DNA of 64,000 nt, from positions 8,147 to 72,146 of the forward strand of contig CACGTA010000001.1 of assembly GCA_902575815.1 (NCBI GenBank), read 5' to 3'. Of this stretch, positions 1,663 through 26,985 are shown one piece after another. Origin of the DNA: an uncultured Alphaproteobacteria bacterium. Lineage in GTDB: Bacteria > Pseudomonadota > Alphaproteobacteria > HIMB59 > GCA-002718135. The notes beneath the pieces are model-generated. The model saw only the letters and a program-made list of their open reading frames with translations, had not been told where the DNA came from and did not search any database. How positions within the stretch are numbered: the stretch's first letter is position 1; the number at the start of each line of letters is the position of its first letter. The position numbers and the translations under genes are program-made.

Positions 1663-2346
1663 TTACGAGCCAAAACAATATCCTGCTGATCTCACGGTTC
1701 TTATAAAATCTTCTTTTACGTCATTATTAATGGCCTTTCGCAGTCTTCTTATATGAACATCAACTGTTCGAGGTTCTACATGGGCCTCATTTTTCCAAAC
1801 ATGATTAAGTAATTGTTCGCGGCTAAAGACACGACCAATATTTTCCATGAAGAAAGCTAATAAATTAAATTCTGTTGGACCAAGATGAAGAGTTTCTCCA
1901 TCTCGTGATGCTGAGTGAGATACAAGGTCAATTACTATTCCTTTATAAGTTAAAACTTCATCTACAAACATTGGTCTAATTCGTCGAAGAACAGCTTTTA
2001 CTCTTGCCACTAATTCGTTAACCGAAAAAGGTTTTGTTATGTAATCATCTGCTCCAGTTTCTAAGCCGCGAAGTTTATCTTCTTCTTCGCCTTTTGCTGT
2101 TAACATTATGATAGGAATATTCTTATGTTCTTTATTTTTTCTAATTCTTCTACAAAGTTCAATTCCTGATAGTTTAGGTAACATCCAATCAAGAATAATT
2201 ATGTCAGGTGGTTTATATAATATTTTTTCTAAAGCAGTTTCACCGTCCGTTGCAGTATCTATTTTATATCCTTCTTTATTAAAATTAAATTTAAGAAGAT
2301 CTAGTAATGCTTCTTCATCTTCGACGATAAGCATTTTTAGTTTCAT
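1663..2346 (-). CDS. phoB: Phosphate regulon response regulator PhoB (OmpR family)
   Basis: Receiver domain (LIVEDE...DWMLP...KPF) plus a winged-helix C-terminus (RTVDVHIRRLRKA...IRTVRSAGY). It is the last gene of the pst-phoU array. Confidence 0.9.
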   Translation of the reverse strand: MKLKMLIVEDEEALLDLLKFNFNKEGYKIDTATDGETALEKILYKPPDIIILDWMLPKLSGIELCRRIRKNKEHKNIPIIMLTAKGEEEDKLRGLETGADDYITKPFSVNELVARVKAVLRRIRPMFVDEVLTYKGIVIDLVSHSASRDGETLHLGPTEFNLLAFFMENIGRVFSREQLLNHVWKNEAHVEPRTVDVHIRRLRKAINNDVKEDFIRTVRSAGYCFGS

Positions 2347-2356
2347 GAATCTCTAC

Positions 2357-2385
2357 TATTAAATTTTTGTTACAATTCTATTACA
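2357..2385 (-). promoter_or_regulatory. Three 11-bp-phased heptamers (Pho-box-like) in the phoU-phoB spacer
   Basis: The minus strand reads TGTAATA-GAAT-TGTAACA-AAAA-TTTAATA. The last heptamer ends only 10 nt before the phoB ATG, so a promoter role is doubtful. Confidence 0.25.
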
Positions 2386-2387
2386 AT

Positions 2388-3098
2388 TTATTTTTTCTTT
2401 GGAAGAATTGCTTCCCAGGTTGGGTCTGGATTACCATCAAATAGGGGCTCACCAGAAACTGCATAATAAATATCTTCAGCTATATTTTGTACATAATCAC
2501 CAATTCGCTCTAGGTCTTTAACCATATATAAAAGACTTGTACATGCTGTGATTCTTTTTGGTTCTTCCATCATGTAGGTTAATAGTTGTCTTAATATTCC
2601 AAGATATTCTTCATCAATTTGTCTATCCATTAACCAAACTTTTTTTGCGGCTTGATCTGAAAATTCTAAAAAAGCTTTTATTACTTCACTAATCATTATA
2701 TTTACTTGTGCACCCATATTAATAATATCTCTCGAAGGTTTTTCTGGCAAAACTATTTCTGCTACTGCTACTCTTTTGGCAATATTTGTTGCATGATCTC
2801 CTATTCTTTCTAGATCTTTATTGATTTTAATTGCTGAAAAAATTGTTCGTAAGTCTGCAGCCATCGGTTGTCTTTTGCCAAGTATTTCAACTAAGCTTTG
2901 ATCAAGAGTATTATATGCTTTATCAATTACATCATCGTTTTCTATAATTTTTTCTGCAAATTCTGTATCTTTATCCTTTAAACATTGAAGTGAGTCTTTT
3001 AGTTGATTTTCAACTAAACTGCCCATATCAACAATATTATTTTTAATGTCTCTAATTTCTTCATCATATGATTTTACAATATGTCCTTCTTGTTTCAT
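2388..3098 (-). CDS. phoU: Phosphate signalling complex protein PhoU
   Basis: 236 aa with the duplicated PhoU repeat (two DLERIGD motifs). It abuts pstB with a 1-nt overlap. Confidence 0.9.
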   Translation of the reverse strand: MKQEGHIVKSYDEEIRDIKNNIVDMGSLVENQLKDSLQCLKDKDTEFAEKIIENDDVIDKAYNTLDQSLVEILGKRQPMAADLRTIFSAIKINKDLERIGDHATNIAKRVAVAEIVLPEKPSRDIINMGAQVNIMISEVIKAFLEFSDQAAKKVWLMDRQIDEEYLGILRQLLTYMMEEPKRITACTSLLYMVKDLERIGDYVQNIAEDIYYAVSGEPLFDGNPDPTWEAILPKKK

Positions 3099-3859
3099 TA
3101 ACCAAATCTCCCTGTAATGTAATCCTGTGTTTTTGTATTATCAGGATTTGTAAAAATTTTGTTTGTCTCACCCGTTTCTATTAATTCTCCTAAATGGAAG
3201 AAACATGTTTTCTGCGAAACCCTGGCTGCCTGTTGCATAGAATGAGTTACTATAATAATTGTATAGTTTAATCTTAACTCATCAATTAATTCTTCTATAA
3301 TAGCAGTTGCTATTGGATCTAAAGCAGAGCAAGGTTCATCCATTAGGATTATTTCAGGATTAACAGCAATTGCTCTTGCAATACATAATCGTTGTTGTTG
3401 ACCGCCTGATAAACTTGTTCCAGGTTCATTTAATCGATCTTTTACTTCATCAAATAGACCTGCCTTTTTTAATGATGAATGTACAATTTCTTCTAATTCA
3501 TTTTTTGAGTCAACTAAACCATGTATAGTTGGGCCATAAGCAACATTATCAAAAATAGATTTAGGAAAAGGATTTGGTTTTTGAAATACCATTCCAATTT
3601 TAGATCTTAGACTTACAACATCGGTTTTTTCACTAATAATTTCTTCGTTATCTACTTTTATTGATCCCGATACTTTACATATTTCAATTAAATCATTCAT
3701 TCTGTTTATACATCTTAAGAAAGTTGATTTACCACATCCTGAAGGACCGATTAATGCCGTAACTTCTTTCTCCTTGATATCCATTGAGATTCCAAAAAGA
3801 GCTTGTTTGGATCCATAATATACATCTACACCATTTGCCAATATTTTAGAGTTACTCAT
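3098..3859 (-). CDS. pstB: Phosphate ABC transporter ATP-binding protein PstB
   Basis: Walker [10 protein letters not shown], signature LSGGQQQRL and Walker B ILMDEP. The PstB-typical N-terminus and C-terminal ITGRFG are present. Confidence 0.95.
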
Positions 3860-3862
3860 GTT

Positions 3863-5143
3863 TTACCACTTCCTTTCAAATCTATTTCTTAAGAACACTG
3901 CAATGGCATTCATCATAAACAAAAATATTAAAATTACCATTATTGCTGCGGCTGATTTTTCTTGAAAACCTCTTTCTGCACTTTCCACCCAAAGATATAT
4001 TTGAACAGGTAGTGCTGCTGAAGGTTCTGTTAAACCTGTTGGAATATTAGGAATAAATGCAATCATGCCAATCATTATTAGTGGTGCTGTTTCTCCTAAT
4101 GCTTGTGCTAATCCAATAATAGTCCCTGTTAAAGTCCCTGGTAGTGCAAGGGGTACGACATGATGAAATACCGCTTGTGTTTTTGTTGCTCCAACTGCAA
4201 GTGCTCCTTCTTTAATTGAAGGAGGAACAGCTTTCAATGAAGCTCGACAGGCAATGATAATGGTTGGTAACGTCATTAAGGCTAATACGGACCCTCCAAC
4301 TAACGGTGTACTCCTTGGAAGACCAAAAACATTAAGCAATACCCCCAACCCAAGTAGTCCAAAAACTATTGATGGGACTGCTGCTAGATTTGAAATATTT
4401 ACTTCTATTAATTCAGTTATTCTATTTTTTGGAGCAAATTCCTCAAGATAAACAGACGCTCCTATAGCAATTGGAAAAGATAAAATAAAAACAGTAAAAA
4501 GAGTAAATAATGATCCCATAAATGAACCAGCTACACCAGCAATTTCAGGATGCCTTGAATCTGCTTTAGTAAAAAAGAAATTATTAAAAACTTGTTTAAC
4601 TCTATTTTCTTCAACTAATTGATCAACATAACTTAATTGAATATCATTTAATTTTCTTCTATCTTCTGGCACATCCCTTCTTGAATTACCTTTTAATAGT
4701 TGATCCACATCACTATGGGCGGTTACCCAAATTTGTTGCTTAGTATTAATAACTTCAGGATTATCTAAGAAGTAGTCTTTAATTTCCTTATCTACATTTA
4801 TAGAAAATAATTTTTTTACTAATTTAATATCTGATTTTGAGAGATCAGGGAAAAAATTTTCAATAGCCTGTTTTTTAACTCTAAAAAATTTTCCTTTTTC
4901 CATATCTTCATCTGAAGAGTCAGGTGTTAGTTTTAAAACCTCTTGATTATAATCAACTTCTAGGAGAACAATTGTTTTTTGAAAAGCAGTGTATCCTTTA
5001 GAAAATATTGTATACAAAAGAAAAACTAAAACTGCTAAAGATAAACACATAGCTGTAAAGCCGTAATACTTAAATCGCATATCTTCTAGGCTTCTCTTTT
5101 TTCTCAAAGAAACAATTTTTTCTTTAGCAATAGAATTATTCAT
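3863..5143 (-). CDS. pstA: Phosphate ABC transporter permease PstA (long form)
   Basis: 426-aa membrane protein with the EAA-type loop (EGALAVGATKTQ) and a large periplasmic insert after TM1. Its position between pstC and pstB supports the call. Confidence 0.9.
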   Translation of the reverse strand: MNNSIAKEKIVSLRKKRSLEDMRFKYYGFTAMCLSLAVLVFLLYTIFSKGYTAFQKTIVLLEVDYNQEVLKLTPDSSDEDMEKGKFFRVKKQAIENFFPDLSKSDIKLVKKLFSINVDKEIKDYFLDNPEVINTKQQIWVTAHSDVDQLLKGNSRRDVPEDRRKLNDIQLSYVDQLVEENRVKQVFNNFFFTKADSRHPEIAGVAGSFMGSLFTLFTVFILSFPIAIGASVYLEEFAPKNRITELIEVNISNLAAVPSIVFGLLGLGVLLNVFGLPRSTPLVGGSVLALMTLPTIIIACRASLKAVPPSIKEGALAVGATKTQAVFHHVVPLALPGTLTGTIIGLAQALGETAPLIMIGMIAFIPNIPTGLTEPSAALPVQIYLWVESAERGFQEKSAAAIMVILIFLFMMNAIAVFLRNRFERKW

Positions 5144-6509
5144 AACGCTCCCTGTATCTCTTTACTATTTGTAGAGCTATAATGTTAAGAAATAATGTAA
5201 TAACAAATAAAACTAATCCTAAAGCAAATGCTGATAATGTTCTTGGGTTATCAAATTCTTGATCACCTATTAAGGCCACAACAATTTGAACTGTAACTGT
5301 TGTTACGTTTTCAAAAGGATTGCCCGTAAGATTGGGGGCTGTGCCTGCTGCAACTACAACAATCATAGTCTCCCCTATCGCTCTGGATATTGCTAATAAA
5401 AATGCTCCTACAATTCCAGGTAAAGCTGCTGGTAAAATTACTTTTTTAATAGTTTCTGCTTTATTAGCGCCAATACCAAGAGATGCTTCCCTTAGACTTT
5501 GTGGGACAGAGTTTATTACATCATCAGATAAAGAAGAAATAAAAGGAATAATCATAACCCCCATTACCATGCCGGCTGCAAGAGCGCTTGTTGGTGAAGC
5601 ATCAATTCCAATTGATTGTCCAAATGCTTTAACGAAAGGTGCAACACTAACAAAAGCAAAGAACCCGTAAACTATTGTTGGTATCCCTGCCAAAATTTCG
5701 AGAAGAGGTTTAACTATTTTTCTAACTCTTTGACTTGCGTATTCTGCTAAATAAATTGCTGTTAATAATCCAAGAGGTGCCGCAACACACATGGCTACTA
5801 CCATTACTAAAAATGTTCCAGCAAATATTGGTACTGCACCAAAGGATCCCTCTGCAGCTGTTTGACCTTCTCTAATTGGAATAAAAGGATACCACTCAGT
5901 ACTAAATAAAAATTCGAAGATTGATACTTCTGCAAAAAAGCGAAGGCTTTCAAATATTAGTGAAAAAACTATTCCTATTGTAGTGAAAATAGCAACAGAT
6001 GAACAAAATATAAGTATATATTGAATATATTTTTCAATTGTATGTTGAGCATGAAATTCTGGTTTTAATTTTTGTGAAGCGTATAAGGCTCCAAGTAACA
6101 TTATAATGATTATTGAGGTATAAAAAGATATTTGACTTATTTGTCTTAAGGAAGAATAATGAGCTGCAGCATTAATTATTTCTATAGATTTACCATCAGC
6201 AAAAGAAAGGTTATTAGCAACATTTCTAATCTCTGCTAACAATAATCCTTCGTTGTAAACTGCGCCCTCAATATATTCAAAGTTACTAATAACTATGTTT
6301 TGAATAATCTGTTCTTGAAAAATAGCCCATGAAAAATAAACAATTAGTGCAGGAAACAAACACCACATTAAAACGTATTGTGCGTAATAATTGGGAAGAG
6401 ATTTGCTTTTCGTACCTTGTTTTTTAGAGTTTAATTTAATTCTTGATCTTCCGTATATAAAGGATGAGAAAATTCCGACTGCAATTAAAACTAAAGACCA
6501 AAAAAACAT
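5136..6509 (-). CDS. pstC: Phosphate ABC transporter permease PstC (long form)
   Basis: 457-aa membrane protein with the EAA-type loop (REASLGIGANKAETI). It overlaps pstA by 8 nt. Confidence 0.9.
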   Translation of the reverse strand: MFFWSLVLIAVGIFSSFIYGRSRIKLNSKKQGTKSKSLPNYYAQYVLMWCLFPALIVYFSWAIFQEQIIQNIVISNFEYIEGAVYNEGLLLAEIRNVANNLSFADGKSIEIINAAAHYSSLRQISQISFYTSIIIIMLLGALYASQKLKPEFHAQHTIEKYIQYILIFCSSVAIFTTIGIVFSLIFESLRFFAEVSIFEFLFSTEWYPFIPIREGQTAAEGSFGAVPIFAGTFLVMVVAMCVAAPLGLLTAIYLAEYASQRVRKIVKPLLEILAGIPTIVYGFFAFVSVAPFVKAFGQSIGIDASPTSALAAGMVMGVMIIPFISSLSDDVINSVPQSLREASLGIGANKAETIKKVILPAALPGIVGAFLLAISRAIGETMIVVVAAGTAPNLTGNPFENVTTVTVQIVVALIGDQEFDNPRTLSAFALGLVLFVITLFLNIIALQIVKRYRERYE

Positions 6510-6524
6510 TTATAACTTAGTATT

Positions 6525-6550
6525 AAAAAAAAGGGGGCTTGTATGCCCCC
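6525..6550 (-). terminator. Intrinsic terminator/attenuator hairpin between pstS and pstC
   Basis: The minus strand reads GGGGGC-ATACAA-GCCCCC followed by eight T. A GC-only stem stands out in an AT-rich genome. Confidence 0.75.
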
Positions 6551-6572
6551 ATTTTATAAAAATTTAAGATTT

Positions 6573-7580
6573 TTATTTATAATTTGTTTGATTAGAAATA
6601 GCATCAAGAACAGCTGCTCTATCCGCAGGACTTAGTTGAACAAGTCCAGCATCTAGTAAGTAACCTTCTGTTGCTTCTTCACTTACAAACTCATTAACAT
6701 AATCCATTAAACCAGGAATAACACCAATGTGTGCTTTTTTAATGTAGAAGAATAAAGGTCTTGCTATTGGATATGAATAATCTTGGATACCTTCCATAGA
6801 GATTTCAACACCGTTAATCATTGACGCTTTAACTTTATCAGAATTATTAGATACAAAACTATAACCAAAGATACCGAATGCACCTTGTTCTTTAGTTATA
6901 TGCTCAACATACAGTTCATCATTTTCACCACCTTCAATAACATGGCCATCTTCACGATACGCTTGACAATCACCGTCAGCAACTAACATATCTTTAACAC
7001 AACCCTTTTTCATTACAAGTGAGTCAAATGCATCTCTTGTTCCAGAAGTTGGAGGAGGTGCCATGATAGAAATTTCAACTTTTGGTAATCTTTTATCTAT
7101 TTCATACCAAGTTGTTGGAGCATTTGCATTATCTCTAGCCATTGCCTGCCAGATTTCTTCTTTAGTTAAATCAATGCCACCTTTCATTGTAGCACCGTTA
7201 GTATATTTCCATTCATAATCTGCAGCGTATGCAAAAGCTATACCATCATTACCAACTCTAACTTCGATGATATCGGTTACACCGCCATCTTGGCACAGTT
7301 TGAATTCTTTATCTTTTTGTGCTCTTGAAGAGTTAGTGATATCTGGATGTTCAACTCCAACACCTGCACAAAATAATTTGTGTCCTCCACCAGAACCAGT
7401 TGATTCAATTACGGGTGCTTTCATTCCTTCTGATGCCATTTTTTCAGCAACTAAAGTAGCGAAAGGATAAACTGTAGAAGATCCTACAATTGAAATATAG
7501 TCTCTTGCTGAAACTGAAGTAGTTCCAAATAAAGCAAGGACAGCAATTAATTTGATTATATTTTTCATATTAAGCCTCAT
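6573..7580 (-). CDS. pstS: Phosphate ABC transporter substrate-binding protein PstS
   Basis: Signal peptide followed by the IVGSSTVYPF and GSGGG motifs of the PstS/PhoT family. The true start may be the second ATG at 7568 (MKNIIK...). Confidence 0.9.
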   Translation of the reverse strand: MRLNMKNIIKLIAVLALFGTTSVSARDYISIVGSSTVYPFATLVAEKMASEGMKAPVIESTGSGGGHKLFCAGVGVEHPDITNSSRAQKDKEFKLCQDGGVTDIIEVRVGNDGIAFAYAADYEWKYTNGATMKGGIDLTKEEIWQAMARDNANAPTTWYEIDKRLPKVEISIMAPPPTSGTRDAFDSLVMKKGCVKDMLVADGDCQAYREDGHVIEGGENDELYVEHITKEQGAFGIFGYSFVSNNSDKVKASMINGVEISMEGIQDYSYPIARPLFFYIKKAHIGVIPGLMDYVNEFVSEEATEGYLLDAGLVQLSPADRAAVLDAISNQTNYK

Positions 7581-7608
7581 TTAAAATAAGGTTGTCGTAC
7601 AGAATATA

Positions 7609-7626
7609 TATTAAGAATTTATTACA
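7609..7626 (-). promoter_or_regulatory. Pho-box-like phased heptamer pair upstream of pstS
   Basis: The minus strand reads TGTAATA-AATT-CTTAATA. It overlaps the phoR stop codon and ends 28 nt before the pstS ATG. Confidence 0.3.
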
Positions 7627-8663
7627 GTTTGCTGAAATACTGGTAAAGAAATAGTAAATGTTGAACCCTTATCTACCTTGCTTTTTATCGATAATTTACC
7701 ATTATGCCTATTAGTTATATGTTTAACAATAGATAAACCCAAACCCGTACCGCCTTGATTTCGAGATCTATTTTTATCTACTCTATAAAATCTTTCAGTA
7801 AGTCTAGTTAAATGCTCTTTCGATATGCCTTCTCCCTTATCTATAAAACTTATTTGGCAAAAGGTGGTATTGTCATCAATTACACTCTCAAGCTCAATTT
7901 CAATAGTAGAATTTTCTCTGCTATATTTAATTGCATTATCAGTTAGATTTAAAAAAACTTGGATCAAAGCATCTTTGTTTGCTGATATTGTAGACTTATC
8001 AAAATCATCCTTGATTTGAACTTCAATTTTTTTTGCCATTAACTTGTTTTGTAAATTATCTACTACGCCTTCAATTAATTGCCTTATATTCGCTTCTTGA
8101 AATTCTATCGGCTTATCTTCAGTCTCATATTTACTTAGTAATAATAGATCTTCGACTAATCTAGTCATACGCCAAGCCTGATCTTCCATTGTGTCTAAAA
8201 ATTTACCAACCGTTTTGTCATTGATCTTATCTTCATTGAGTGAATTTTTAATTGTTTCAACATAGCCTAGAATTGAGGAAAGAGGAGTTCTCAATTCATG
8301 GCTTACATTAGCCACAAAATCTGTTCGCATTTGTTCGTAGTTTTTAAGAAGACTTTGATCGTTTAGTGATATTAACAATTCTTCATAATCTTTTTCAACA
8401 AATATTAAGTCAGCAATAAAATACATATCACTAAAATTAGATGGGGTGAATTCAAACTTAAAATCTTCTTTCTCCCTAAAGGCTTTATCAACAAAAGTAT
8501 TTAACTCTGTTGATCTAATAATATTATTAAGATCTCTTCCTTCATCAATAAATAAAAATTTTTGTTTAGCTGCATTATTGTAAAAAATTATTTCCTTATT
8601 TGTATCAATTGCAATAATAATCGAAGGTATCTTACTTAGACTTAGTCTTAGTTTTTTTTTCAT
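7611..8663 (-). CDS. phoR: Phosphate regulon sensor histidine kinase PhoR, apparently lacking transmembrane segments
   Basis: PAS-like N-terminus (IIAIDTNKEIIFYNNAA), H-box SHELRTPL, and N/G boxes (DNAIKY, GTGLGLSIV). No hydrophobic N-terminal helices are seen. The position is the usual one upstream of pstS. Confidence 0.8.
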   Translation of the reverse strand: MKKKLRLSLSKIPSIIIAIDTNKEIIFYNNAAKQKFLFIDEGRDLNNIIRSTELNTFVDKAFREKEDFKFEFTPSNFSDMYFIADLIFVEKDYEELLISLNDQSLLKNYEQMRTDFVANVSHELRTPLSSILGYVETIKNSLNEDKINDKTVGKFLDTMEDQAWRMTRLVEDLLLLSKYETEDKPIEFQEANIRQLIEGVVDNLQNKLMAKKIEVQIKDDFDKSTISANKDALIQVFLNLTDNAIKYSRENSTIEIELESVIDDNTTFCQISFIDKGEGISKEHLTRLTERFYRVDKNRSRNQGGTGLGLSIVKHITNRHNGKLSIKSKVDKGSTFTISLPVFQQTVINS

Positions 8664-9217: not shown

Positions 9218-10030
9218 ATGAAATTTGAAACAAACAAAAAATTTTACCGCACAATTTGGATTTCGGATACCCATCTAGGAACTAGTGGCTGTAAAAGCAA
9301 CATGCTTTTAGAATTCTTAGAAGAAACAGATTCAGAATATTTATTTTTAGTAGGCGACATTGTAGATGGATGGCGCATGCGTAAGAAAATGTATTGGCCA
9401 CAAGAACATAATGACGTTGTTCAAAAAGTTTTAAAGAAAGCGAAAAACGGAACTAAGGTAGTGCTTATTCCAGGAAATCATGATGAAGTATTAAAAGATT
9501 TTACAAATTTTTCTTTTGGAGAAATTTCGATCAAAAATGAAGATACGCATCAATTAGCTGATGGAAGAAAAGTACTTATTACACACGGAGATGAATTTGA
9601 TGCTGTGATCATTAATGCGAGGTGGTTAGCCAAAGTGGGATCAGCACTTTATGAATATTTACTAAAGTTAAATAATGTATTCAATTTTATTCGACGAAAG
9701 ATGGGCTTGTCTTATTGGTCACTGTCTCAATATTTAAAAAAGAAAACTAAGCATGCAACAAACTTTATTAGTAACTTTGAGTTTGCTGTATCTGACAGAG
9801 CTAGAAGAGAAAATGCCGATGTTGTCGTGTGCGGGCATATACATAGACCAGAAATAAAGGAATTAAATGGTGTTCTCTATTGTAATGATGGTGACTGGAT
9901 TGAAAGTTGCACAGCACTCGTTGAAGATGAAATTGGCAATTTATCAATTCTTAATTGGCCCGAAGAAAGAGAAAAATTAAAATTAATTTCTTTTGAAGAA
10001 AGACGAAAAATAAAAGAGGATGCAGCCTAA
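9218..10030 (+). CDS. plcP: Metallophosphoesterase of the PlcP type (phospholipase C for phosphate-stress lipid remodelling), copy 1
   Basis: Calcineurin-like motifs ISDTHLG, GDIVDG, GNHD, HGDEFD and GHIH. It overlaps a GT4 glycosyltransferase, which is the plcP-agt arrangement described for marine heterotrophs. Confidence 0.75.
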   Translation: MKFETNKKFYRTIWISDTHLGTSGCKSNMLLEFLEETDSEYLFLVGDIVDGWRMRKKMYWPQEHNDVVQKVLKKAKNGTKVVLIPGNHDEVLKDFTNFSFGEISIKNEDTHQLADGRKVLITHGDEFDAVIINARWLAKVGSALYEYLLKLNNVFNFIRRKMGLSYWSLSQYLKKKTKHATNFISNFEFAVSDRARRENADVVVCGHIHRPEIKELNGVLYCNDGDWIESCTALVEDEIGNLSILNWPEEREKLKLISFEERRKIKEDAA

Positions 10031-11021
10031 AAAAATCGCGTTAATTAGTGATGCGTGGGTTCCTCAGGTAAATGGCGTAGTTACGACATTTCAAAGCATT
10101 ATACCTATTCTAGAAAAAAAAGGTTTTGAAATTAAAATATTACATCCTGAGATGTTTAATAATTTTAGTTATCCTAGGTACAAAGAAATTAAAATTTCTT
10201 ACAATACTAAAAAAGTTACTGAAAAATTTTTTAAAGAATTTAATCCAGATATTGTTCATATAATGACTGAAGGTCCAGTAGGTTTTGCTGGTCGTAAGTA
10301 CTGTCTTAAAAATAAACTACAATACACTTCTTCCTTTCACACCCGTTTTCCTGACTACATTAAGCAAAGAGCTTTTATCCCAAAGAGATTTACATACTCC
10401 ATATTAAGAAGACTACATAGTGATTCAGAAAGAGTTCTTGTTCCATCAGTTTCAATGCTAAATGAGTTAAAAAAATATGATTTTAAAAATTTAGTAGTTT
10501 GGAATAGAGGTGTTGATACAGAATTATTTAATCCAAATAAAAGAGACACAAACAGTAAAGATAGACAACTGACTTATGTTGGTAGAGTAGCAATTGAAAA
10601 AAATATTGAAGAATTTTTAAATCTTAAAGGAAATTATAATAAAACTGTTGTGGGTGATGGTCCCGAATTACAAAAATATATTTATAAATATCCTGAAGTA
10701 AATTTTGTCGGTGTAAAAACTGGAGATGAACTAGCGAAATATTATGCAAACGCAGATGTATTTGTCTTTCCTTCTAAAACAGACACTTTAGGAAATGTAA
10801 TACTTGAAGCATTGGCTAGTGGAACACCAATTGCTGCATATCCAGTAACCGGGCCCATAGATGTGTTAACAGATGAAAAGATTAACACTTTAGATAATAA
10901 CTTGTTACAATCAGTTAAGAAGGCACTTAAAGTAAAAAGAGTTGATTGTAGAAATTTTACTCTTAAATTAACTTGGGACAAATGTGTGAATGAATTTTTA
11001 GAATTTATGGTAAAAGTTTAG
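10020..11021 (+). CDS. agt: GT4 glycosyltransferase, Agt-like diacylglycerol glycosyltransferase, copy 1
   Basis: N-terminal SDAWVPQVNGVV and C-terminal FVFPSKTDTLGNVILEALASGTP (GT-B, E-x7-E region). It overlaps plcP by 11 nt. Confidence 0.75.
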   Translation: MQPKKIALISDAWVPQVNGVVTTFQSIIPILEKKGFEIKILHPEMFNNFSYPRYKEIKISYNTKKVTEKFFKEFNPDIVHIMTEGPVGFAGRKYCLKNKLQYTSSFHTRFPDYIKQRAFIPKRFTYSILRRLHSDSERVLVPSVSMLNELKKYDFKNLVVWNRGVDTELFNPNKRDTNSKDRQLTYVGRVAIEKNIEEFLNLKGNYNKTVVGDGPELQKYIYKYPEVNFVGVKTGDELAKYYANADVFVFPSKTDTLGNVILEALASGTPIAAYPVTGPIDVLTDEKINTLDNNLLQSVKKALKVKRVDCRNFTLKLTWDKCVNEFLEFMVKV

Positions 11022-13151: not shown

Positions 13152-15251
13152 ATGTTAAAAAAAAATACCACTTATAACTATGCAAACAGGGAATTGTCTT
13201 GGCTAAAATTCAATGAAAGAGTCTTAAGTCAGACATCTGATAGTAAAATTCCACTTTTAGAAAGGGTTAGATTTTTATCAATAGCATTCTCTAATTTAGA
13301 TGAATTTTTTATGGTTAGAGTAGCAGGATTGAATGTTCAAAAATTTTCACGACATAAAAGTTTTGATGGATTAACACCACAACAACAACTCAAGCTGATA
13401 GATAAAGAAACATCGAAGATGATTTCAAATATAAAATCAATATGGATAGATTTACTAAGAGAGCTTTCAGAAAACAAAATCCATATAGATGTAGAAAAAA
13501 CACTGAAAACAAAAGATAAAACATTTATTAAAAATTATTTAGAAGAAAATAATTTGGGAGTTTTAACGCCAATTATTATTGATCCATCTCACCCATTTCC
13601 TTTTATACCAAATAAAGAAACAACCTTAGTATGTCGTTTAATAAATAATAAAAAAACTTTTTATGGAATACTGAGAGTGCCAGAGGGATTAGAAAAATTT
13701 ATTAAATTACCTGGTAAAAAAACACGTTTTGTATCTATGGAGACAGCCCTACTTATTTCTCTAAAAGAAATTTTCCAGTGTGATAGGGTTTTGGATAAAG
13801 GTGTTTTTAGACCAATTAGGAATAGTGAATTAGAATTAGGTGGTGAGGGAGAAGATTTATTTTTAGTATTTCAAAAAGCTATTTTTGAGAGAAGAAGACA
13901 AGAGGTAATAAGAATTGATTTTGATGAAAGTATATCTAGTCACTTAATTAAATTCATAAATAAAAAACTTAACTATAAGGATGTAAATACATATAAACTG
14001 CCAATACCCGTTAATCTTTCGAGTATAGAGTCAATTTTTTTGAAAGATTTTAAAAAATTATTTTTTCCAAAATTTAAGGTACGATTTCCTGAAAGAATTA
14101 AAGATTTTAAAAATGATTATTTTAAAGCTATAGCAAATAAAGATATTGTTATTCATCACCCTTTTGAATCTTTTGAAGTAGTGACTCAGTTTATTGATCA
14201 AGCTGCAGATGACCCAAAAGTCTTATCAATAAAACATACTTTATACCGAACTACTGATGACTCACCAATAGAAGCAAGTTTAGTTAGAGCAGCACAAAAA
14301 GGAAAATTAGTAACTGTCATTATAGAGTTGCAAGCACGTTTTGATGAAGAGCGTAACTTAAAATGGGCAAAAGAATTAGAATTAGCTGGAGCGCAAGTTG
14401 TTTTTGGCAATATTGATATGAAAACTCATGCAAAAATTACACTTGTAACAAGGAAGCAAATGAATTCTGTTGTAAATTACGCACATTATGGAACAGGTAA
14501 TTATCACCCAAGAAATGCAAGAGTTTATATGGATTTATCTTACTTCACCTGCGACAAAACATTAACAAATGATGCTGCAAAAATGTTTAATTATTTAACT
14601 AGTTATTCAGAACCAACCACAATAAAAAAAATAGTATATTCTCCAATAACTGCAAGAAACAAATTAAATGAACTAATTAGAAATGAAATTACAAATGCTG
14701 GAAAAAATAAGCCATCTGGAATAGTATGTAAGTGTAATTCTCTTGTTGATAAACAAATTATTGATGAATTTTATAAAGCATCTCAAAAAAATGTAAAAAT
14801 TGAATTGTTGATAAGAGGAATTTGCTCTCTAATACCTGGTAAAGAAAATCTATCGGAAAATATAGTTGTTAAAAGTATAATTGGTCGTTTTTTAGAACAT
14901 ACGAGAATATATTGTTTTTATAACGGTCATAAATTCCCTCATAGAAAAAATATCTTGTTTATTTCTTCTGCCGATTTAATGCAAAGAAATCTAGATAGGC
15001 GGGTTGAAACATTCATCCCTATTGAAAATGAAACTGTACATGAACAAATATTAAATCAGATCTTAATTGCCAGTATGGCAGATAATACAAATTCTTGGCA
15101 AATGTTGAGTAATGGCAATTATCAGAAAAAAGAAATATCAAGCAAAGAAAAAAAATTTTCCTCTCACAATTTTTTTATCAAAAATCCAAGCTTGTCTGGG
15201 AGGGGTTCAGCAAAACTCAAATCTAGAGCTAAGTCTAATTTAAAAATTTGA
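13152..15251 (+). CDS. ppk: Polyphosphate kinase 1
   Basis: 699 aa with N-terminal NRELSWL.FN.RVL, the IVIHHPFESF and KTHAK motifs, and two PLD-like C-terminal domains. Confidence 0.95.
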   Translation: MLKKNTTYNYANRELSWLKFNERVLSQTSDSKIPLLERVRFLSIAFSNLDEFFMVRVAGLNVQKFSRHKSFDGLTPQQQLKLIDKETSKMISNIKSIWIDLLRELSENKIHIDVEKTLKTKDKTFIKNYLEENNLGVLTPIIIDPSHPFPFIPNKETTLVCRLINNKKTFYGILRVPEGLEKFIKLPGKKTRFVSMETALLISLKEIFQCDRVLDKGVFRPIRNSELELGGEGEDLFLVFQKAIFERRRQEVIRIDFDESISSHLIKFINKKLNYKDVNTYKLPIPVNLSSIESIFLKDFKKLFFPKFKVRFPERIKDFKNDYFKAIANKDIVIHHPFESFEVVTQFIDQAADDPKVLSIKHTLYRTTDDSPIEASLVRAAQKGKLVTVIIELQARFDEERNLKWAKELELAGAQVVFGNIDMKTHAKITLVTRKQMNSVVNYAHYGTGNYHPRNARVYMDLSYFTCDKTLTNDAAKMFNYLTSYSEPTTIKKIVYSPITARNKLNELIRNEITNAGKNKPSGIVCKCNSLVDKQIIDEFYKASQKNVKIELLIRGICSLIPGKENLSENIVVKSIIGRFLEHTRIYCFYNGHKFPHRKNILFISSADLMQRNLDRRVETFIPIENETVHEQILNQILIASMADNTNSWQMLSNGNYQKKEISSKEKKFSSHNFFIKNPSLSGRGSAKLKSRAKSNLKI

Positions 15252-15266
15252 AAATGGAATTTAATC

Positions 15267-15315
15267 CCACTCACAATAATTGGACATAAGCAGGAAGAAA
15301 TAATACTGCGAGTGG
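15267..15315. terminator. Long hairpin inside repeat copy 1, between convergent ppk and agt2; possible bidirectional terminator
   Basis: CCACTCACA ... TGCGAGTGG (9 bp, one G-U on one strand), extended by AATAAT/ATTATT-type pairs. The T-rich tracts are not immediately adjacent. Confidence 0.35.
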
Positions 15316-15394
15316 TAAGATGTAATTAAATTTTATTTTTTACAGACGTGTTAATAGAATATTAAATTTTTATAAATTAAACTAATTTTTTAAT

Positions 15395-15458
15395 TTATTG
15401 GTTTTCAAATAAATTTTTTAGTTCCTTCAATTTTTGAAAATTGAATCTCTTACTTCTT
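15395..15458 (-). pseudogene. Decayed fragment of the arsC 3-prime end
   Basis: This stretch aligns to the last ~20 codons of arsC (18409-18469). A 1-nt deletion breaks the frame (ATTTTCAAAAATTGAAGG versus ATTTTTGATAAATTGAAAG). No upstream coding part is present. Confidence 0.55.
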
Positions 15459-15477
15459 AGTAACTATAATTTTAAAA

Positions 15478-16473
15478 TTAATTTTTTGCATTTACAACAT
15501 TTGATAGAAATTGATTTGCACATTTATCCCAAGTAAATTGCATTGCAAATTTTCTACAATCTTTTCTATCAATCTTTAAGGCTTTATTAAGTGAGTTTTC
15601 AATATTATTATCAAGGCTATCAATTAATGAGTTTTTTAAAATATCTTTAGGACCTGTTACTGGGTACGCAGCCACTGGTGTGCCAGAGGCTAAAGACTCT
15701 AAAATTACATTTCCAAATGTATCTGTTTTGGATGGGAATACCAATGCTTCAGCATTTGCATAATAGTTTGCTAGGTCTTGACCTTTTTTCATCCCAACGA
15801 AAGACACATATGGATATTTATTTTGTAATCGTTGCTTTTCTGGACCATCTCCAACAACAATTTTATGCATCTTAGTTCTTATTTCTAAAAACGCTTCGAT
15901 GTTTTTTTCTAATGAAACCCTACCAATGTAAACAATATACTTTTTCATTCCCTTTTTTCTTTTTAAAGGATTAAATAATTCAGTATTAACTCCCCTTGAC
16001 CAAATTTTAAGATTTTGAAATTGATATTTAGTTAATTCGTTACGCATAGATATTGTTGGAACCAATACATTACATGCATTTTTATGAAAATTTTTTAAAA
16101 AAGAGTACCCAATTATTTTTGGTATCATTATTCTTTGCTCTAAATATTCTGGAAATCTCGTATGAAAAGAGGTTGTATATCTCAACTTATTATTCTCACA
16201 GAATTTTTTCCCCGCAATTCCAACTGGTCCTTCAGTGGCAATATGTATAACATCTGGATCATAATCACCAAAAAATTTTTCTGTTATTTTTTTTGTATTA
16301 ATTGCTATTTTTATTTCCTTATACCAAGGATAACTAAAATTAGTAAACATCATTGGGTGGAGTACTTCAATTTGATACTTTTGTTTTAAAAATGGATTAA
16401 TATGTTGGTATGTATTTACCACACCATTAACTTGGGGAAGCCAAGCATCGGTAATGATCGCTAATTTTTTCAC
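15478..16473 (-). CDS. agt: GT4 glycosyltransferase, Agt-like, copy 2
   Basis: 331 aa and collinear with copy 1 (TDAWLPQVNGVV...FPSKTDTFGNVILESLASGTP). It is roughly two-thirds identical by eye. Confidence 0.75.
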   Translation of the reverse strand: MKKLAIITDAWLPQVNGVVNTYQHINPFLKQKYQIEVLHPMMFTNFSYPWYKEIKIAINTKKITEKFFGDYDPDVIHIATEGPVGIAGKKFCENNKLRYTTSFHTRFPEYLEQRIMIPKIIGYSFLKNFHKNACNVLVPTISMRNELTKYQFQNLKIWSRGVNTELFNPLKRKKGMKKYIVYIGRVSLEKNIEAFLEIRTKMHKIVVGDGPEKQRLQNKYPYVSFVGMKKGQDLANYYANAEALVFPSKTDTFGNVILESLASGTPVAAYPVTGPKDILKNSLIDSLDNNIENSLNKALKIDRKDCRKFAMQFTWDKCANQFLSNVVNAKN

Positions 16474-17276
16474 ACTAATACACTTTCTGCTAGTTTGTTA
16501 TGTTTATGTTGAAAAATTTTTTCTCTTTCAATTGACCAGTCAATAAGGGATAATTGTCCCTCATTATTTTCCACTAGCGCAGAACAACTCTCAACCCAAT
16601 CACCATCATTGCAATATAAAACTCCATTTAATTTTTTTATAATGGGCTTATGAATATGGCCGCACACAACAACATCAGCATTTGCTCTTTTAGCACTATC
16701 AGATACGGCAAACTCAAAGTTAGAAATAAAATTCGTGGCTCTTTTTGTTTGATGTTTGAGAAATTGAGATAATGACCAATAAGATAGACCTAGTTTTCTT
16801 CTGACAAAATTTAGATAGTTATTCAACTTTAATATAAATTCGTATAGAGATGACCCAATACTTGCCAGCCATTTAGCGTTTAATATAACTGCATCAAATT
16901 CATCACCATGTAAAACAAGGGCATTTCTTCCATCAGCTAATTTGTGTGTAAACTTATTTTTTATTGATATATTCCCTAGTGAAAAACTTGTGTAACTTTT
17001 CACAAGTTCGTCATGATTACCTGGGATAAATATTACTTTTGTACCTTTTCTTGCTTTACGCAAAATCTTCTGGATAATGTCATTATGAGTTTGATGCCAA
17101 TAAATTTTTTTTTTCATTCTCCATGCATCAATAATATCGCCAACTAAAAATAAATATTTTGAATCTGTTGATCTCAAAAATTCAAGAAGCATTTCACTCT
17201 TGCTATTTTCTGTTCCAAGATGAAGATCAGATATCCATATAGTTCTATAATATGAAACTGATTGCTGATCTTTCAT
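16470..17276 (-). CDS. plcP: PlcP-type metallophosphoesterase, copy 2
   Basis: It carries the same motif set as copy 1 (ISDLHLG, GDIIDA, GNHD, HGDEFD, GHIH). It overlaps agt2 by 4 nt. Confidence 0.75.
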   Translation of the reverse strand: MKDQQSVSYYRTIWISDLHLGTENSKSEMLLEFLRSTDSKYLFLVGDIIDAWRMKKKIYWHQTHNDIIQKILRKARKGTKVIFIPGNHDELVKSYTSFSLGNISIKNKFTHKLADGRNALVLHGDEFDAVILNAKWLASIGSSLYEFILKLNNYLNFVRRKLGLSYWSLSQFLKHQTKRATNFISNFEFAVSDSAKRANADVVVCGHIHKPIIKKLNGVLYCNDGDWVESCSALVENNEGQLSLIDWSIEREKIFQHKHNKLAESVLV

Positions 17277-17302
17277 TTTATTAATAAATAATAGAAAGAA
17301 TT

Positions 17303-17320
17303 TGTTAAAATTTTATTTCA
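17303..17320 (-). promoter_or_regulatory. Pho-box-like phased heptamer pair upstream of plcP copy 2
   Basis: The minus strand reads TGAAATA-AAAT-TTTAACA, then 9 nt, then TATTAT (-10-like), then 11 nt to the ATG. Confidence 0.4.
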
Positions 17321-17354
17321 ATTACATTAACTAAATTTTTTTTTTACAGAAGTA

Positions 17355-18197
17355 TTAATTAAATATTGAGTTTTTATTACTTGGATCTAATCTATAAGTG
17401 CTATTCCTTAAAAATTTTGTAATCTCAATAAGATTGCCAATTTCTTTTATGGTTTCAAAGGGTATTCTTTGTCCAATGTGAACATCAATTTTTTTTCCCA
17501 TTCTTCTTTTAAGTTCATATATCATTAAAGAATATCGAAAGACTTGCCCAATTTTATCAGCAACATGAAAAAGTTCACTATTTTGTCCTTCAAAAAAAAT
17601 TGGGAGGACAGGTGATTGAGTTTTCATTATTATTTTTGAAGTAAATTGTTTCCATTCACGATCTATTGCTTTGATTCCTTTTTTTAATTTTGGTTTCGTT
17701 GAAACTGATCCTGATGGAAAAATGATTAGTGCCCCATTATTTCTTAAGTGTTCTTCGCATTCTTTACGTGCAGCGATATTATTTATTAAAGCATTTCTAT
17801 TTTTTGAAAAATCAAGAGGAATAATTTTATTCTTAATAAGATCTGCTCCTTGTAAAACTTTATGCGTAATAATTTTGTAATCTTGTCTAATTTTACTAAT
17901 TAAAGAGCATATTGTAAGACCATCAGCTATTCCAAATGCATGGTTAGCGATTACTACAAGTTTGCCATTTTTAGGAATATTACTTTTAGAATGATAATGT
18001 GTCTGAACACGGAGACCTAATCTTTCAATTGCATCATGCCAAAAATTCTCTGGAGGTAAATTTTCTCTTAAATAATCCTCATACAACTTACGTAACTTAA
18101 TTTTACCCGTTCCCAATTCGGTTAATTGAATAATAATCTTTCCAACAGGATTAACTTCGGAGTTAGAAAAGGTAAGCGCTGGTTTATTAATTTTCAT
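17355..18197 (-). CDS. Lysophospholipid acyltransferase family protein (PlsC/OlsA-like)
   Basis: H-x4-D motif NHAFGIADG and the FPSGSVS block. It is 280 aa and co-directional with plcP2-agt2. Confidence 0.7.
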   Translation of the reverse strand: MKINKPALTFSNSEVNPVGKIIIQLTELGTGKIKLRKLYEDYLRENLPPENFWHDAIERLGLRVQTHYHSKSNIPKNGKLVVIANHAFGIADGLTICSLISKIRQDYKIITHKVLQGADLIKNKIIPLDFSKNRNALINNIAARKECEEHLRNNGALIIFPSGSVSTKPKLKKGIKAIDREWKQFTSKIIMKTQSPVLPIFFEGQNSELFHVADKIGQVFRYSLMIYELKRRMGKKIDVHIGQRIPFETIKEIGNLIEITKFLRNSTYRLDPSNKNSIFN

Positions 18198-18227
18198 AAA
18201 ATTTACTTTAAATTCTTAATTTTATAA

Positions 18228-18245
18228 TGTTAAACAATTGTTAAA
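18228..18245 (-). promoter_or_regulatory. Pho-box-like perfect heptamer pair upstream of the acyltransferase
   Basis: The minus strand reads TTTAACA-ATTG-TTTAACA and ends 30 nt upstream of the ATG. Confidence 0.45.
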
Positions 18246-18271
18246 GTACTCGAAAAAGGAGAAATAAAAAA

Positions 18272-18469
18272 TTAATCCCACTCACAATTATTGGTAATTA
18301 GCAGGAGGAAATAATACTGTGAGTGGTAAGAAGCATTTAAATTTTATTGTTTACAGATAGATTAATGGAATATTAAATTTTTATAAATTTAATTAATTTT
18401 TAACTTCATTAATTCTCAAATAAATTTTTTAGTTCTTTCAATTTATCAAAAATTGAATCTCTTACTTCT
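18272..18469. repeat. Direct repeat copy 2 (includes the arsC 3-prime end and downstream hairpin)
   Basis: See copy 1. This copy is continuous with the intact arsC. Confidence 0.85.
18278..18326 (-). terminator. Hairpin downstream of arsC; possible terminator or structured leader of the acyltransferase
   Basis: CCACTCACA ... TGTGAGTGG is a perfect 9 bp stem with AT extensions. On the minus strand it is followed by GATTAATTTTTTATTT. Confidence 0.4.
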
Positions 18470-18828
18470 CTAAATTTATCTAATTGGTTTGAACTAAAAT
18501 GATCTGATGCCGGATCATCAAATGGTATTGAAAATATCTGAGCTTTGGAATTTAAAACTGGACATACCTCTTCTTTACAAAGCGTAAAAACGGTATTTAA
18601 TTCATCTCTAAATTTGTTGTCTAAACTTTCAAAATCTTTTGAATAATGTTTTGATATATCAATATCGATTTCACCCATAACCTCGATAGCATTAGGATTA
18701 ACTTCTTTGGGCACTGATCCTGCACTTTGAATAATGCAATTAGGATATAATTTTTTTGCAATTCCTTCAGCCATTTGACTTCTTGCTGAATTAGCAACAC
18801 ACATAAAAAGAATATTTTTATTTTTCAT
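18409..18828 (-). CDS. arsC: Arsenate reductase, LMW-PTP (thioredoxin-coupled) type
   Basis: N-terminal ILFMCVANSARSQMAEG (C-x5-R P-loop) with later Cys residues (LCKEEVCP). It is 139 aa. Confidence 0.85.
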   Translation of the reverse strand: MKNKNILFMCVANSARSQMAEGIAKKLYPNCIIQSAGSVPKEVNPNAIEVMGEIDIDISKHYSKDFESLDNKFRDELNTVFTLCKEEVCPVLNSKAQIFSIPFDDPASDHFSSNQLDKFREVRDSIFDKLKELKNLFEN

Positions 18829-19119: not shown

Positions 19120-19137
19120 TGTAACAAAAATTTAACA
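19120..19137 (+). promoter_or_regulatory. Pho-box-like phased heptamer pair in the arsC-operon / pit-operon divergent spacer
   Basis: The plus strand reads TGTAACA-AAAA-TTTAACA and ends 38 nt before the DUF47 ATG. Confidence 0.4.
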
Positions 19138-26844: not shown

Positions 26845-26893
26845 TATAAATCTCCTATTTTTATCAATGAAATTTTTTTGGTTAAGATATAAA

Positions 26894-26911
26894 TATTAAT
26901 ATTTTGTTAAA
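26894..26911 (-). promoter_or_regulatory. Pho-box-like phased heptamer pair upstream of the Ugp-like operon
   Basis: The minus strand reads TTTAACA-AAAT-ATTAATA. Confidence 0.3.
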
Positions 26912-26985
26912 TTTTAACTAATTTATTTTTAAATTTTTTAATTCTTTTTTATTATTTTTTTTTTATGTATATTTATTAAATATTT

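Follow-up and report, generated by a model that had tools for sequence, protein, structure and literature searches.

This text concerns a 64,000-nucleotide (nt) stretch of an uncultured alphaproteobacterial genome (assembly GCA_902575815.1, contig CACGTA010000001.1, positions 8,147 to 72,146 of the forward strand), the whole of which I refer to here as the window, and more particularly the interval within it that lies between the genes arsC and ppk. That interval contains two diverged, directly repeated copies of the arsC 3' end along with the spacer and hairpin found downstream of it, and a block of three genes lies between these copies. The arrangement is probably the scar of an illegitimate or homology-assisted insertion between what were convergent arsC and ppk genes, and that scar would now be serving as a substrate for homologous deletion as well as re-insertion. 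So viewed, the locus would seem to be a further example of the small flexible islands already known from SAR11 bacteria rather than a new mobile element.

The two copies, designated R1 (copy 1, next to ppk) and R2 (copy 2, at arsC; coordinates in Table 1), had been described in a first-pass annotation of the window as aligning in the same orientation at roughly 85% identity, and formal pairwise alignment agrees: 86.1% identity over 201 columns (MAFFT, blastn), with one 1-nt indel and E = 6e-56 (blastn), the copies being spaced 3011 nt apart, start to start. By segment this is 88.5% identity for the arsC tail, 82.9% for the spacer, and 87.8% for the hairpin, with exact runs of 21, 20, 22, and 17 nt common to both copies. 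Approximately 16 nt more of weaker similarity can be followed on the ppk side (15242/18253). Beyond copies 1 and 2, no full repeat copy is found by blastn in the 64-kb window; a partial third copy, consisting of the last codons of the acyltransferase gene together with a TCTGTAAA box, resembles the middle of the repeat.

Copy 2 is essentially what that annotation had taken it to be, i.e., the end of intact arsC plus downstream DNA that includes a hairpin. Its coding part runs from arsC codon -20 to the stop (18409-18469, EVRDSIFDKLKELKNLFEN and then the stop), and another 139 nt follow downstream. Copy 1, likewise as had been claimed, has its hairpin and a frame-broken arsC tail (a 1-nt deletion) but no gene attached, with its minus-strand translation reading EVRDSIFKN and a stop and then, following the frameshift, KLKELKNLFENQ and a stop. 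This displaced copy is separated by 19 nt from the agt2 stop and by 6 nt from the ppk stop, and it is present in ten of ten near-identical single-cell loci (L081-L090; loci of relatives carry L numbers here, the close ones having been collected by exact-protein look-ups). The arsC tail of copy 1 aligned alone is 92.6% identical to its counterpart over 54 nt (E = 1e-14), which settles a doubt that had been raised as to whether that similarity is significant; the same tail, moreover, is in frame in L094 and constitutes the working arsC end in L111. A different 1-nt deletion is seen in L092 and L112. As the frameshifts differ between the window and L092/L112 and are lacking in L094, the copy-1 tail thus was intact at the time of duplication and has decayed independently in each lineage.

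Had there been an insertion, then ‘empty’ sites, that is, arsC followed by a single repeat followed by ppk, might be expected among relatives, and a comparison of empty with filled sites had been suggested along with the first-pass annotation. Empty sites do exist, both within the same population and in a distant relative: in two single-cell genomes (L111, L113), on two metagenome contigs (L104, L108), and in a distant metagenome-assembled genome (L001). The last of these is from a scan of a genome collection for ppk in which, among the matches listed, distant alphaproteobacterial ppk genes were 44-49% identical and L001 alone was useful. Alleles of both kinds, filled and empty, are found side by side with flanks that are otherwise nearly identical, ppk being approximately 99% identical in amino acids to that of the window in L104, L108, and L113, and ArsC 96-99% identical in L104, L111, and L113 (98% in L111).

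The single repeats of these empty sites are chimeric in ways that can be mapped. The set of copy-1 sequences and the set of copy-2 sequences are separated by 37 fixed columns, and the L104/L108 repeat is of the copy-2 type at 24 of 24 diagnostic columns and then of the copy-1 type at 13 of 13, the one switch falling inside a run of 22 nt which is identical between the window's copies. Such a repeat would be the expected product of a single crossover between copies 1 and 2 or, equally, would be the substrate of the reverse reaction. The L113 repeat is a finer mosaic. The repeat of L111 is of the copy-1 type throughout, with its tail (EVRDSIFIKLKELKNLFEN and then the stop) serving as the working arsC end, and the window differs from L111 at 6 of 360 nt over the arsC body but at no fewer than 22 of the 200 nt that follow. 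This step in divergence, from 1.7% to >10%, occurs about 12 nt inside the repeat's left boundary, and it fits with an insert that carried its own arsC tail. The single repeat of L091/L101 possesses states of both copies, which agrees with a composite of two alleles. As a crossover between copies deletes the block, the block therefore is a presence/absence polymorphism within one population. Assembly artefact is unlikely as a cause of the empty sites, these coming from two independent single-cell assemblies and two metagenome contigs, with three different mosaics; relevant as well is that exact runs shared by the repeat copies do not exceed 22 nt.

Layouts of the arsC-ppk interval nevertheless are more varied than simply filled or empty, with at least six seen among relatives. 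The window's layout, with both copies, is shared by L100 and by L081-L090, the latter being ten single-cell genomes with identical ArsC that match the window at 97.5-99.5% identity across 15 kb. In L091/L101 there is arsC, one repeat, a 72-nt spacer, the acyltransferase gene, and then the 3' remnant of a gene of 470 amino acids, which retains its own hairpin (the remnant at about 9500-9545 of L091) and abuts ppk; plcP2-agt2 and a second repeat are both absent. In L092, L112, and L098 the order is arsC, R2, acyltransferase gene, an intact 470-amino-acid gene with hairpin, a 57-nt ppk-tail remnant, approximately 195 nt of unique DNA, plcP2, agt2, the arsC-tail remnant plus R1, and ppk. The window equals the L092 form minus exactly 1772 bp, i.e., minus the 470-amino-acid gene, its hairpin, the 57-nt ppk-tail remnant, and the approximately 195 nt of unique DNA, and the window's layout thus derives, by deletion, from a longer composite.

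The ppk-tail remnant of L092 (10386-10442) consists of the ppk 3' end, i.e., the stop codon and about 49 nt, and lies between the hairpin of the 470-amino-acid gene and plcP2. It is, that is, a second duplicated gene end, found on the opposite side of plcP2-agt2, and it is closer to the ppk tail of L091 (96.8%) than to the ppk tail of its own locus (89.5%). Also to be noted among these alleles is the 470-amino-acid gene itself (L092 8951-10363, and present too in L112, L098, L093, and L097), which has a Pho-box-like motif ahead of it and a hairpin of its own (GAAGCTGGATATATTCCAGCTTC) behind it, and whose product has no match in Pfam or NCBIfam.

Still other variation involves the surroundings. 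L102 and L098 come from one contig, and L102, its left part, has an extra four-gene ATP-binding cassette (ABC) transporter directly after the R2 hairpin (L102 853-4994, opposite strand; a binding protein, two permeases, and an ATPase with a TOBE domain). In L093 and L097 the acyltransferase and 470-amino-acid genes have different surroundings and are separated by an R-type hairpin (L093 3281-3387), so that the R-type 3' module occurs behind three different genes (arsC, agt2, and the acyltransferase gene). With L109, L110, L114, and L115, arsC converges on the MIP gene, and there is neither a ppx-SixA-ppk block nor the repeat nor the cassette; the arsC-MIP spacer of L109 is just 7 nt (887-895), and ArsC of these alleles is 94% identical to that of the window. 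In L108 (5177-5512) the 3' half of arsC (66 amino acids, 97%) continues in frame from an N-terminal prepilin-type methylation motif, with type II secretion G and F genes following, so that either the DNA is really rearranged or the metagenome contig is chimeric.

It is over this allele series that the first-pass annotation needs amending, since it had treated the bracketed genes as one three-gene cassette. The acyltransferase gene occurs alone with a single repeat in L091/L101, and an extra 470-amino-acid gene plus ppk-tail remnant occur in L092/L112/L098. Given the acyltransferase-only and the longer alleles, the bracketed DNA thus consists of independently varying modules, with the arsC-tail copy traveling with plcP2-agt2 and not with the acyltransferase gene.

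What I infer as to the direction and the enzymology of the first event is as follows. Accessory genes of the Pho regulon would have been inserted between arsC and ppk, thereby placing two versions of the arsC tail, spacer, and hairpin in tandem. The inserted genes would have been those for the aminolipid-type acyltransferase, for the 470-amino-acid protein (later lost from the window's lineage), and plcP2-agt2. Copy 2 would have come with the inserted DNA, as the arsC tail plus spacer of another allele, and would be what now completes a working arsC. Copy 1 then would be the displaced resident tail and spacer of an empty-type allele, its coding part free to decay, and its hairpin retained most likely as the 3' end or terminator of the agt2 operon and, more weakly, on behalf of ppk. 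No mobile-element enzyme would be needed for this first event, which would most simply have been homology-assisted or illegitimate recombination between SAR11 chromosomes or alleles, with a left junction that is seamless within arsC and a right junction (agt2 stop + 19 nt joined to arsC -60) that is non-homologous. The full composite could then be described as two alleles of the arsC(-60)-to-ppk(-49) segment in tandem around plcP2-agt2, and the 14% divergence between copies would reflect not age but a difference between alleles. The 3-kb block would later be removed by homologous recombination from one copy to the other, presumably releasing a circle that could re-insert.

The repeated unit itself can be understood from its hairpin. 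On the minus strand, i.e., that which is sense for arsC and agt2, the hairpin folds with z = -4.0 to -4.5 versus z of about -1.7 to -1.9 for the plus strand (for R1, -18.5 kcal/mol and z = -3.98 on the minus strand versus z = -1.7 on the plus), and the A-to-G and C-to-T variants of copy 1 retain G.U pairs on the minus strand only. The arms are CCACTCACA/TGTGAGTGG, as read from the sequence. Pairing of the 12-bp stem is 95.5% when the 11 distinct versions are taken together, as compared with 31-49% for slid registers, four pairs have changed on both sides, and none of 500 shuffles reach the observed covariation score. In distant L001, whose ppk is 75% identical, ppk and arsC are directly convergent and 142 nt apart with the hairpin between them, and there the hairpin displays two compensatory stem changes plus a wobble change, the UUUCCUCCU loop motif, and flanking T-runs. 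That loop motif is conserved from the window (15285-15295, 18296-18306; also L093) to L001 although the surrounding spacer is not. Given the position of the hairpin between convergent ppk and arsC in L001, its covariation, and its minus-strand folding, the unit thus is the arsC 3' end together with a structured arsC-ppk spacer.

As for function, the hairpin most likely is a 3'-end or terminator structure. Its stem is of 11-12 bp and its loop of 25-29 nt, and a U-run follows the stem in R2 and L001 but is weak in R1. Searching with Rfam 15 (gathering and E-value modes) gives no relevant match, the sole match being a chance small nucleolar RNA. The UUUCCUCCU of the loop resembles an anti-Shine-Dalgarno sequence, with AGGAGGAAA on the other strand and with UUUCUUCCU in copy 1. 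A small plus-strand open reading frame (ORF) that would begin after this AGGAGG loop was considered as well and was rejected as not conserved: it is 13 amino acids in R2 and L093, 25 amino acids in L091 and L111, without a start codon in R1, and absent from L001.

A number of observations weigh against an insertion scar of this sort, or at least against parts of the account. For each empty allele both an ancestral state and a product of deletion are valid readings, leaving direction not fixed, and the mosaic repeats could in part be old polymorphism of the arsC-ppk spacer instead of crossovers between copies. A RecA-type crossover would have only short identical runs (11-22 nt) to work with. 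In L092 the ppk-tail remnant calls for a second illegitimate junction, which goes beyond a simple, one-step model, and the approximately 195 nt of unique DNA beside it has no homolog among the compared loci (blastn, tblastx), the one other result of that search being that the region upstream of plcP2 weakly matches L095. Outside of this locus the nearest relative of plcP2-agt2 is just 67% identical, and a donor context was not found. The loop of the hairpin is atypically large for an intrinsic terminator, and too long for the hairpin to be called in a consensus terminator scan. Lastly, as the single-cell genomes were chosen by protein identity, their counts say nothing on allele frequencies.

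The first-pass annotation had viewed the duplicated gene end as the footprint of an insertion that restores its target, and this view survives in that arsC is indeed restored and empty sites are real, but not to the extent that it implies an integrase-type island or a single cassette. Site-specific integration, i.e., by a tyrosine or serine recombinase whose gene would lie on a phage or elsewhere in the genome, at an att core on the repeat's left edge (GAAGTAAGAGA..), and with copy 2 as a surrogate arsC 3' end, can be judged unlikely. The direct repeats do include a duplicated target-gene 3' end, as with integrase islands, the left boundary of the repeat is sharp and its right one fuzzy, the target gene is restored, L111 has the appearance of a precise left-edge excision, and SAR11 islands with partial transfer RNA (tRNA) repeats have been reported (PMC11796062). 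L111 fits with a left-edge core, but L104/L108 and L113 switch inside the repeat, the block is modular with further breakpoints that vary, and no compositional anomaly is seen (block GC content 0.25-0.32, the same as the flanks). A recombinase domain, in addition, was not found in the 64-kb window or within 10 kb in 16 related loci. That no integrase or transposase is present had been claimed previously, and none is found in the window's scanned ORFs of at least 100 amino acids (Pfam) or in the gene calls of related loci, with the negative for the 20.9-32.4 kb stretch coming from gene calls of near-identical single-cell loci. Nor does the locus resemble an integron. Integron attC sites end RYYYAAC...GTTRRRY after each cassette, and the system needs both IntI and attI, whereas here the scanned ORFs supply no integrase and the hairpin arms are as given above. 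A Campbell-type origin, in which a circle bearing one arsC-tail/spacer unit plus cargo entered by a single homologous crossover within the 200-nt unit of an empty site, is rather unlikely as well, even if this is the exact reverse of the deletion that L104/L108 suggest, accounts for divergence from L111 that starts at the repeat boundary, and could have made use of identical runs of 20-22 nt. The problem in this case is only shifted, as the circle must already possess the non-homologous junction of agt2 with an arsC tail; a pure copy 2 along with a pure copy 1, furthermore, demand a crossover within the first ~12-21 nt, and no circle has been observed.

The pairing in L092 of a ppk-tail remnant on one side of plcP2-agt2 with an arsC-tail remnant on the other, gene ends which are only ~257 nt apart in an empty site, might instead be viewed as the outcome of template switching during replication: on stalling at the arsC/ppk hairpin, a fork would have copied a nearby plcP-agt in inverted orientation and then returned ~257 nt upstream, duplicating the arsC tail, spacer, and ppk tail. 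The inversion of plcP2-agt2 relative to plcP1-agt1, 5 kb away, is what this would produce, and another lineage (L095) has plcP-agt-plcP-agt in tandem at the plcP1-agt1 place. Template switching still is quite improbable, given that plcP2-agt2 has a nucleotide identity of just 68.8% to plcP1-agt1 and an amino-acid identity of 67% to the copy in L095, neither of which is a plausible template, and that the copies differ by 14%, more like different alleles than like a fresh in-situ duplicate. The possibility of a functional dispersed intergenic module, whether of the repetitive extragenic palindrome (REP) or miniature inverted-repeat transposable element (MITE) sort or a regulatory RNA, with copies kept alike by selection or by transposition, is largely refuted and can be given hardly any weight. 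A related hairpin and TCTGTAAA box do follow the acyltransferase gene in the different context of L093/L097, and the UUUCCUCCU loop motif is conserved as far out as L001. A pattern scan of a metagenome collection for the hairpin, however, gave 12 loci, seven of them real and all of those adjoining arsC, ppk, the acyltransferase gene, or the 470-amino-acid gene, with the other five being chance matches in unrelated DNA (four of these GC-rich). A covariance-model search over the window plus 27 SAR11-type loci (384 kb) recovered known copies only, Rfam offered no match, and copy 1 contains a true arsC coding remnant. The many copies of a REP/MITE-type repeat are not seen by any of these means, nor with blastn of the window, i.e., the repeat is not scattered, as the first-pass annotation had cautioned that it might be, but is confined to the arsC-ppk locus family. 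A long shot, finally, is that the hairpin unit, with its TCTGTAAA box, 12-bp stem, and CCUCC-containing loop, is a portable module-boundary site for some recombinase, housekeeping or other, or else a Pho-response RNA. The box plus stem do occur 3' of arsC, of agt2, and, in some relatives, of the acyltransferase gene, and were a boundary-site role to be true, then the Pho region of SAR11 would be built of hairpin-bounded cassettes, loosely like an integron without a nearby integrase gene.

Exactly three ORFs lie between the copies, agt2, plcP2, and a PlsC-like acyltransferase gene, just as first annotated, and this is supported by both ORF and domain scans. Plausibly all three make phosphorus-free lipids. 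The acyltransferase is similar to the O-acyltransferase half of OlsF/GlsA, although falling below curated cut-offs. For PlcP-Agt, it is SAR11 strain HTCC7211 that reportedly was studied by Carini et al. in 2015 with regard to phosphorus-sparing lipid remodelling. PlcP and Agt of that strain have been shown to make phosphorus-free lipids (Sebastian et al. 2016, PMC4796936). The likeness to the HTCC7211 operon includes agt following immediately upon plcP, the same families (metallophosphoesterase, GT4), and a Pho-regulon neighbourhood, while the differences are that the pair here is the genome's second and has diverged from the first (70% and 61% identical in amino acids) and that it adjoins an aminolipid-type acyltransferase gene and is carried by only some members of the population.

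That plcP2-agt2 arose from plcP1-agt1 by a recent duplication is ruled out by the identities of 68.8% for nucleotides and 61% for Agt amino acids. Close homologs of Agt2 (98%, 91%) are found at the arsC-ppk locus only, with the next best, at 67%, being the second Agt of L095, a lineage with tandem plcP-agt-plcP-agt. Given these levels of identity and these nearest relatives, plcP2-agt2 thus is an old paralog from within SAR11 and not a recent copy. The two tandem pairs of L095 (3-3642), as also of L096, are located directly upstream of MIP-ppx-SixA-ppk.

In SAR11 populations about 60 small islands have been described, of fixed position, with a median of 1.4 kb, and without mobile elements, and in four of these a flanking tRNA is partly repeated, which reveals that a cassette was inserted, with exchange ascribed to homologous recombination (Molina-Pardines et al., Microbiome 2025, PMC11796062). 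The arsC-ppk locus shares with those islands a fixed position between conserved genes, alternative contents of about 1-5 kb, a lack of mobile-element genes, an insertion marked by the partial repetition of a boundary gene, and exchange that is put down to homologous recombination. It differs from them in that the boundary gene repeated here, arsC, codes for a protein and is not a tRNA, the repeat comprising its 3' end plus the hairpin of convergent genes, and in that the copies have diverged by 14%, as if different alleles, with recombinant empty alleles and mapped switch points directly visible. Integrase-borne islands and prophages that occupy the 3' end of a gene or tRNA (attL/attR) are similar in so far as the insert restores the target gene, the original 3' end is displaced to the far side, and a single copy is found in empty sites. 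Here, however, no recombinase gene was found, there is no compositional signature, the cargo consists of independently varying modules, and crossovers occur at several places.

Homology-facilitated illegitimate recombination in naturally recombining bacteria, as de Vries and Wackernagel are said to have described in 2002, along with deletion between direct repeats, offers the closer likeness in mechanism: a homologous junction within arsC, a non-homologous one 19 nt past agt2, and a block that would later be lost via crossover between the resulting repeats. The mechanism in our case is read from sequence. The locus may be viewed, nonetheless, as a base-pair-level look at how a streamlined ocean bacterium could gain and lose phosphate-stress genes without mobile elements. 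A duplicated gene end plus terminator would keep both neighbouring genes intact following insertion and would later provide a handle for removal of the block. The second lipid-remodelling pair and the aminolipid-type acyltransferase are, as a consequence, variable within a single population, which matters when metagenomic abundances of plcP and agt serve as markers of phosphorus stress.

Table 1. Features of the window that are discussed in the text, in order of position (R1 and R2 are repeat copies 1 and 2).
Feature	Position	Strand	Remarks
phoB, phoU, pstBACS, phoR	1663-8663	-	
TTTAACA-N4-TTTAACA	2357-2374	-	2 mismatches; upstream of phoB
plcP1-agt1, first lipid-remodelling pair	9218-11021	+	68.8% nucleotide identity to plcP2-agt2
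ppk (polyphosphate kinase 1)	13152-15251	+	convergent on cassette; convergent on arsC in empty-site alleles
R1	15258-15457	-	displaced arsC tail, spacer, hairpin; between agt2 and ppk stops
Hairpin of R1	15267-15315	-	A-to-G change keeps G.U pair in minus-strand RNA only
Decayed arsC 3' fragment in R1	15398-15457	-	1-nt deletion; stop TAA to CAA
agt2, GT4 glycosyltransferase, Agt-like	15478-16473	-	61% amino-acid identity to agt1
plcP2, metallophosphoesterase, PlcP-like	16470-17276	-	about 70% amino-acid identity to plcP1
Partial third copy	17328-17421	-	72% over ~95-100 nt; acyltransferase 3' end + TCTGTAAA box
Junction of 1772-bp difference versus L092-type alleles	17333/17334		window = L092 form minus exactly 1772 bp
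Acyltransferase gene	17355-18197	-	PF19576/PF01553; without plcP2-agt2 in L091, L101
Unique spacer, R2 to acyltransferase start	18198-18268	-	holds candidate Pho box/promoter 18228-18245
TTTAACA-ATTG-TTTAACA, exact	18228-18245	-	candidate Pho box; upstream of acyltransferase gene
R2	18269-18469	-	last 20 arsC codons + stop, 82-nt spacer, hairpin, 9 nt past hairpin
Hairpin of R2	18278-18326	-	49 nt; stem CCACTCACAGT(A)/(T)ATTGTGAGTGG, loop ~26 nt containing TTTCCTCCT
arsC, thioredoxin-type LMWP arsenate reductase, intact	18409-18828	-	3' end belongs to R2
TTTAACA-N4-TTTAACA	19120-19137	+	1 mismatch; upstream of PhoU_div-PHO4
TTTAACA-N4-TTTAACA	26894-26911	-	2 mismatches; upstream of ABC-transporter binding protein

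The wider window is AT-rich (31% GC) and carries a phosphate-stress region of the SAR11 type. Between plcP1-agt1 and ppk are found the genes for a MIP channel, ppx, and a SixA-like phosphatase, while beyond arsC, on the minus strand, there is a DUF6552 gene and then, next, PhoU_div plus a PHO4 transporter. A direct repeat with the architecture of a Pho box (7+4+7) is found at four promoter positions of the window, as listed in Table 1, though in the window as a whole such repeats number eight, which is not above the chance expectation (5.8 +/- 2.4), and the motif accordingly remains a lead only. An AT-rich segment at 26865-26984, upstream of the ABC binding-protein gene, is weakly similar to copy 2 (69.5% over 128 nt), a similarity which probably reflects base composition along with the Pho-box-like motif. 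Other variation is seen nearby in relatives. In L112 (5107-5146) PhoU_div-PHO4 is missing from between a phosphatase gene and DUF6552, i.e., there is a further presence/absence module just a few kb from the repeat, and in L111, an empty-site single-cell genome, ppx (9218-9979) is shortened to 253 amino acids versus 301.

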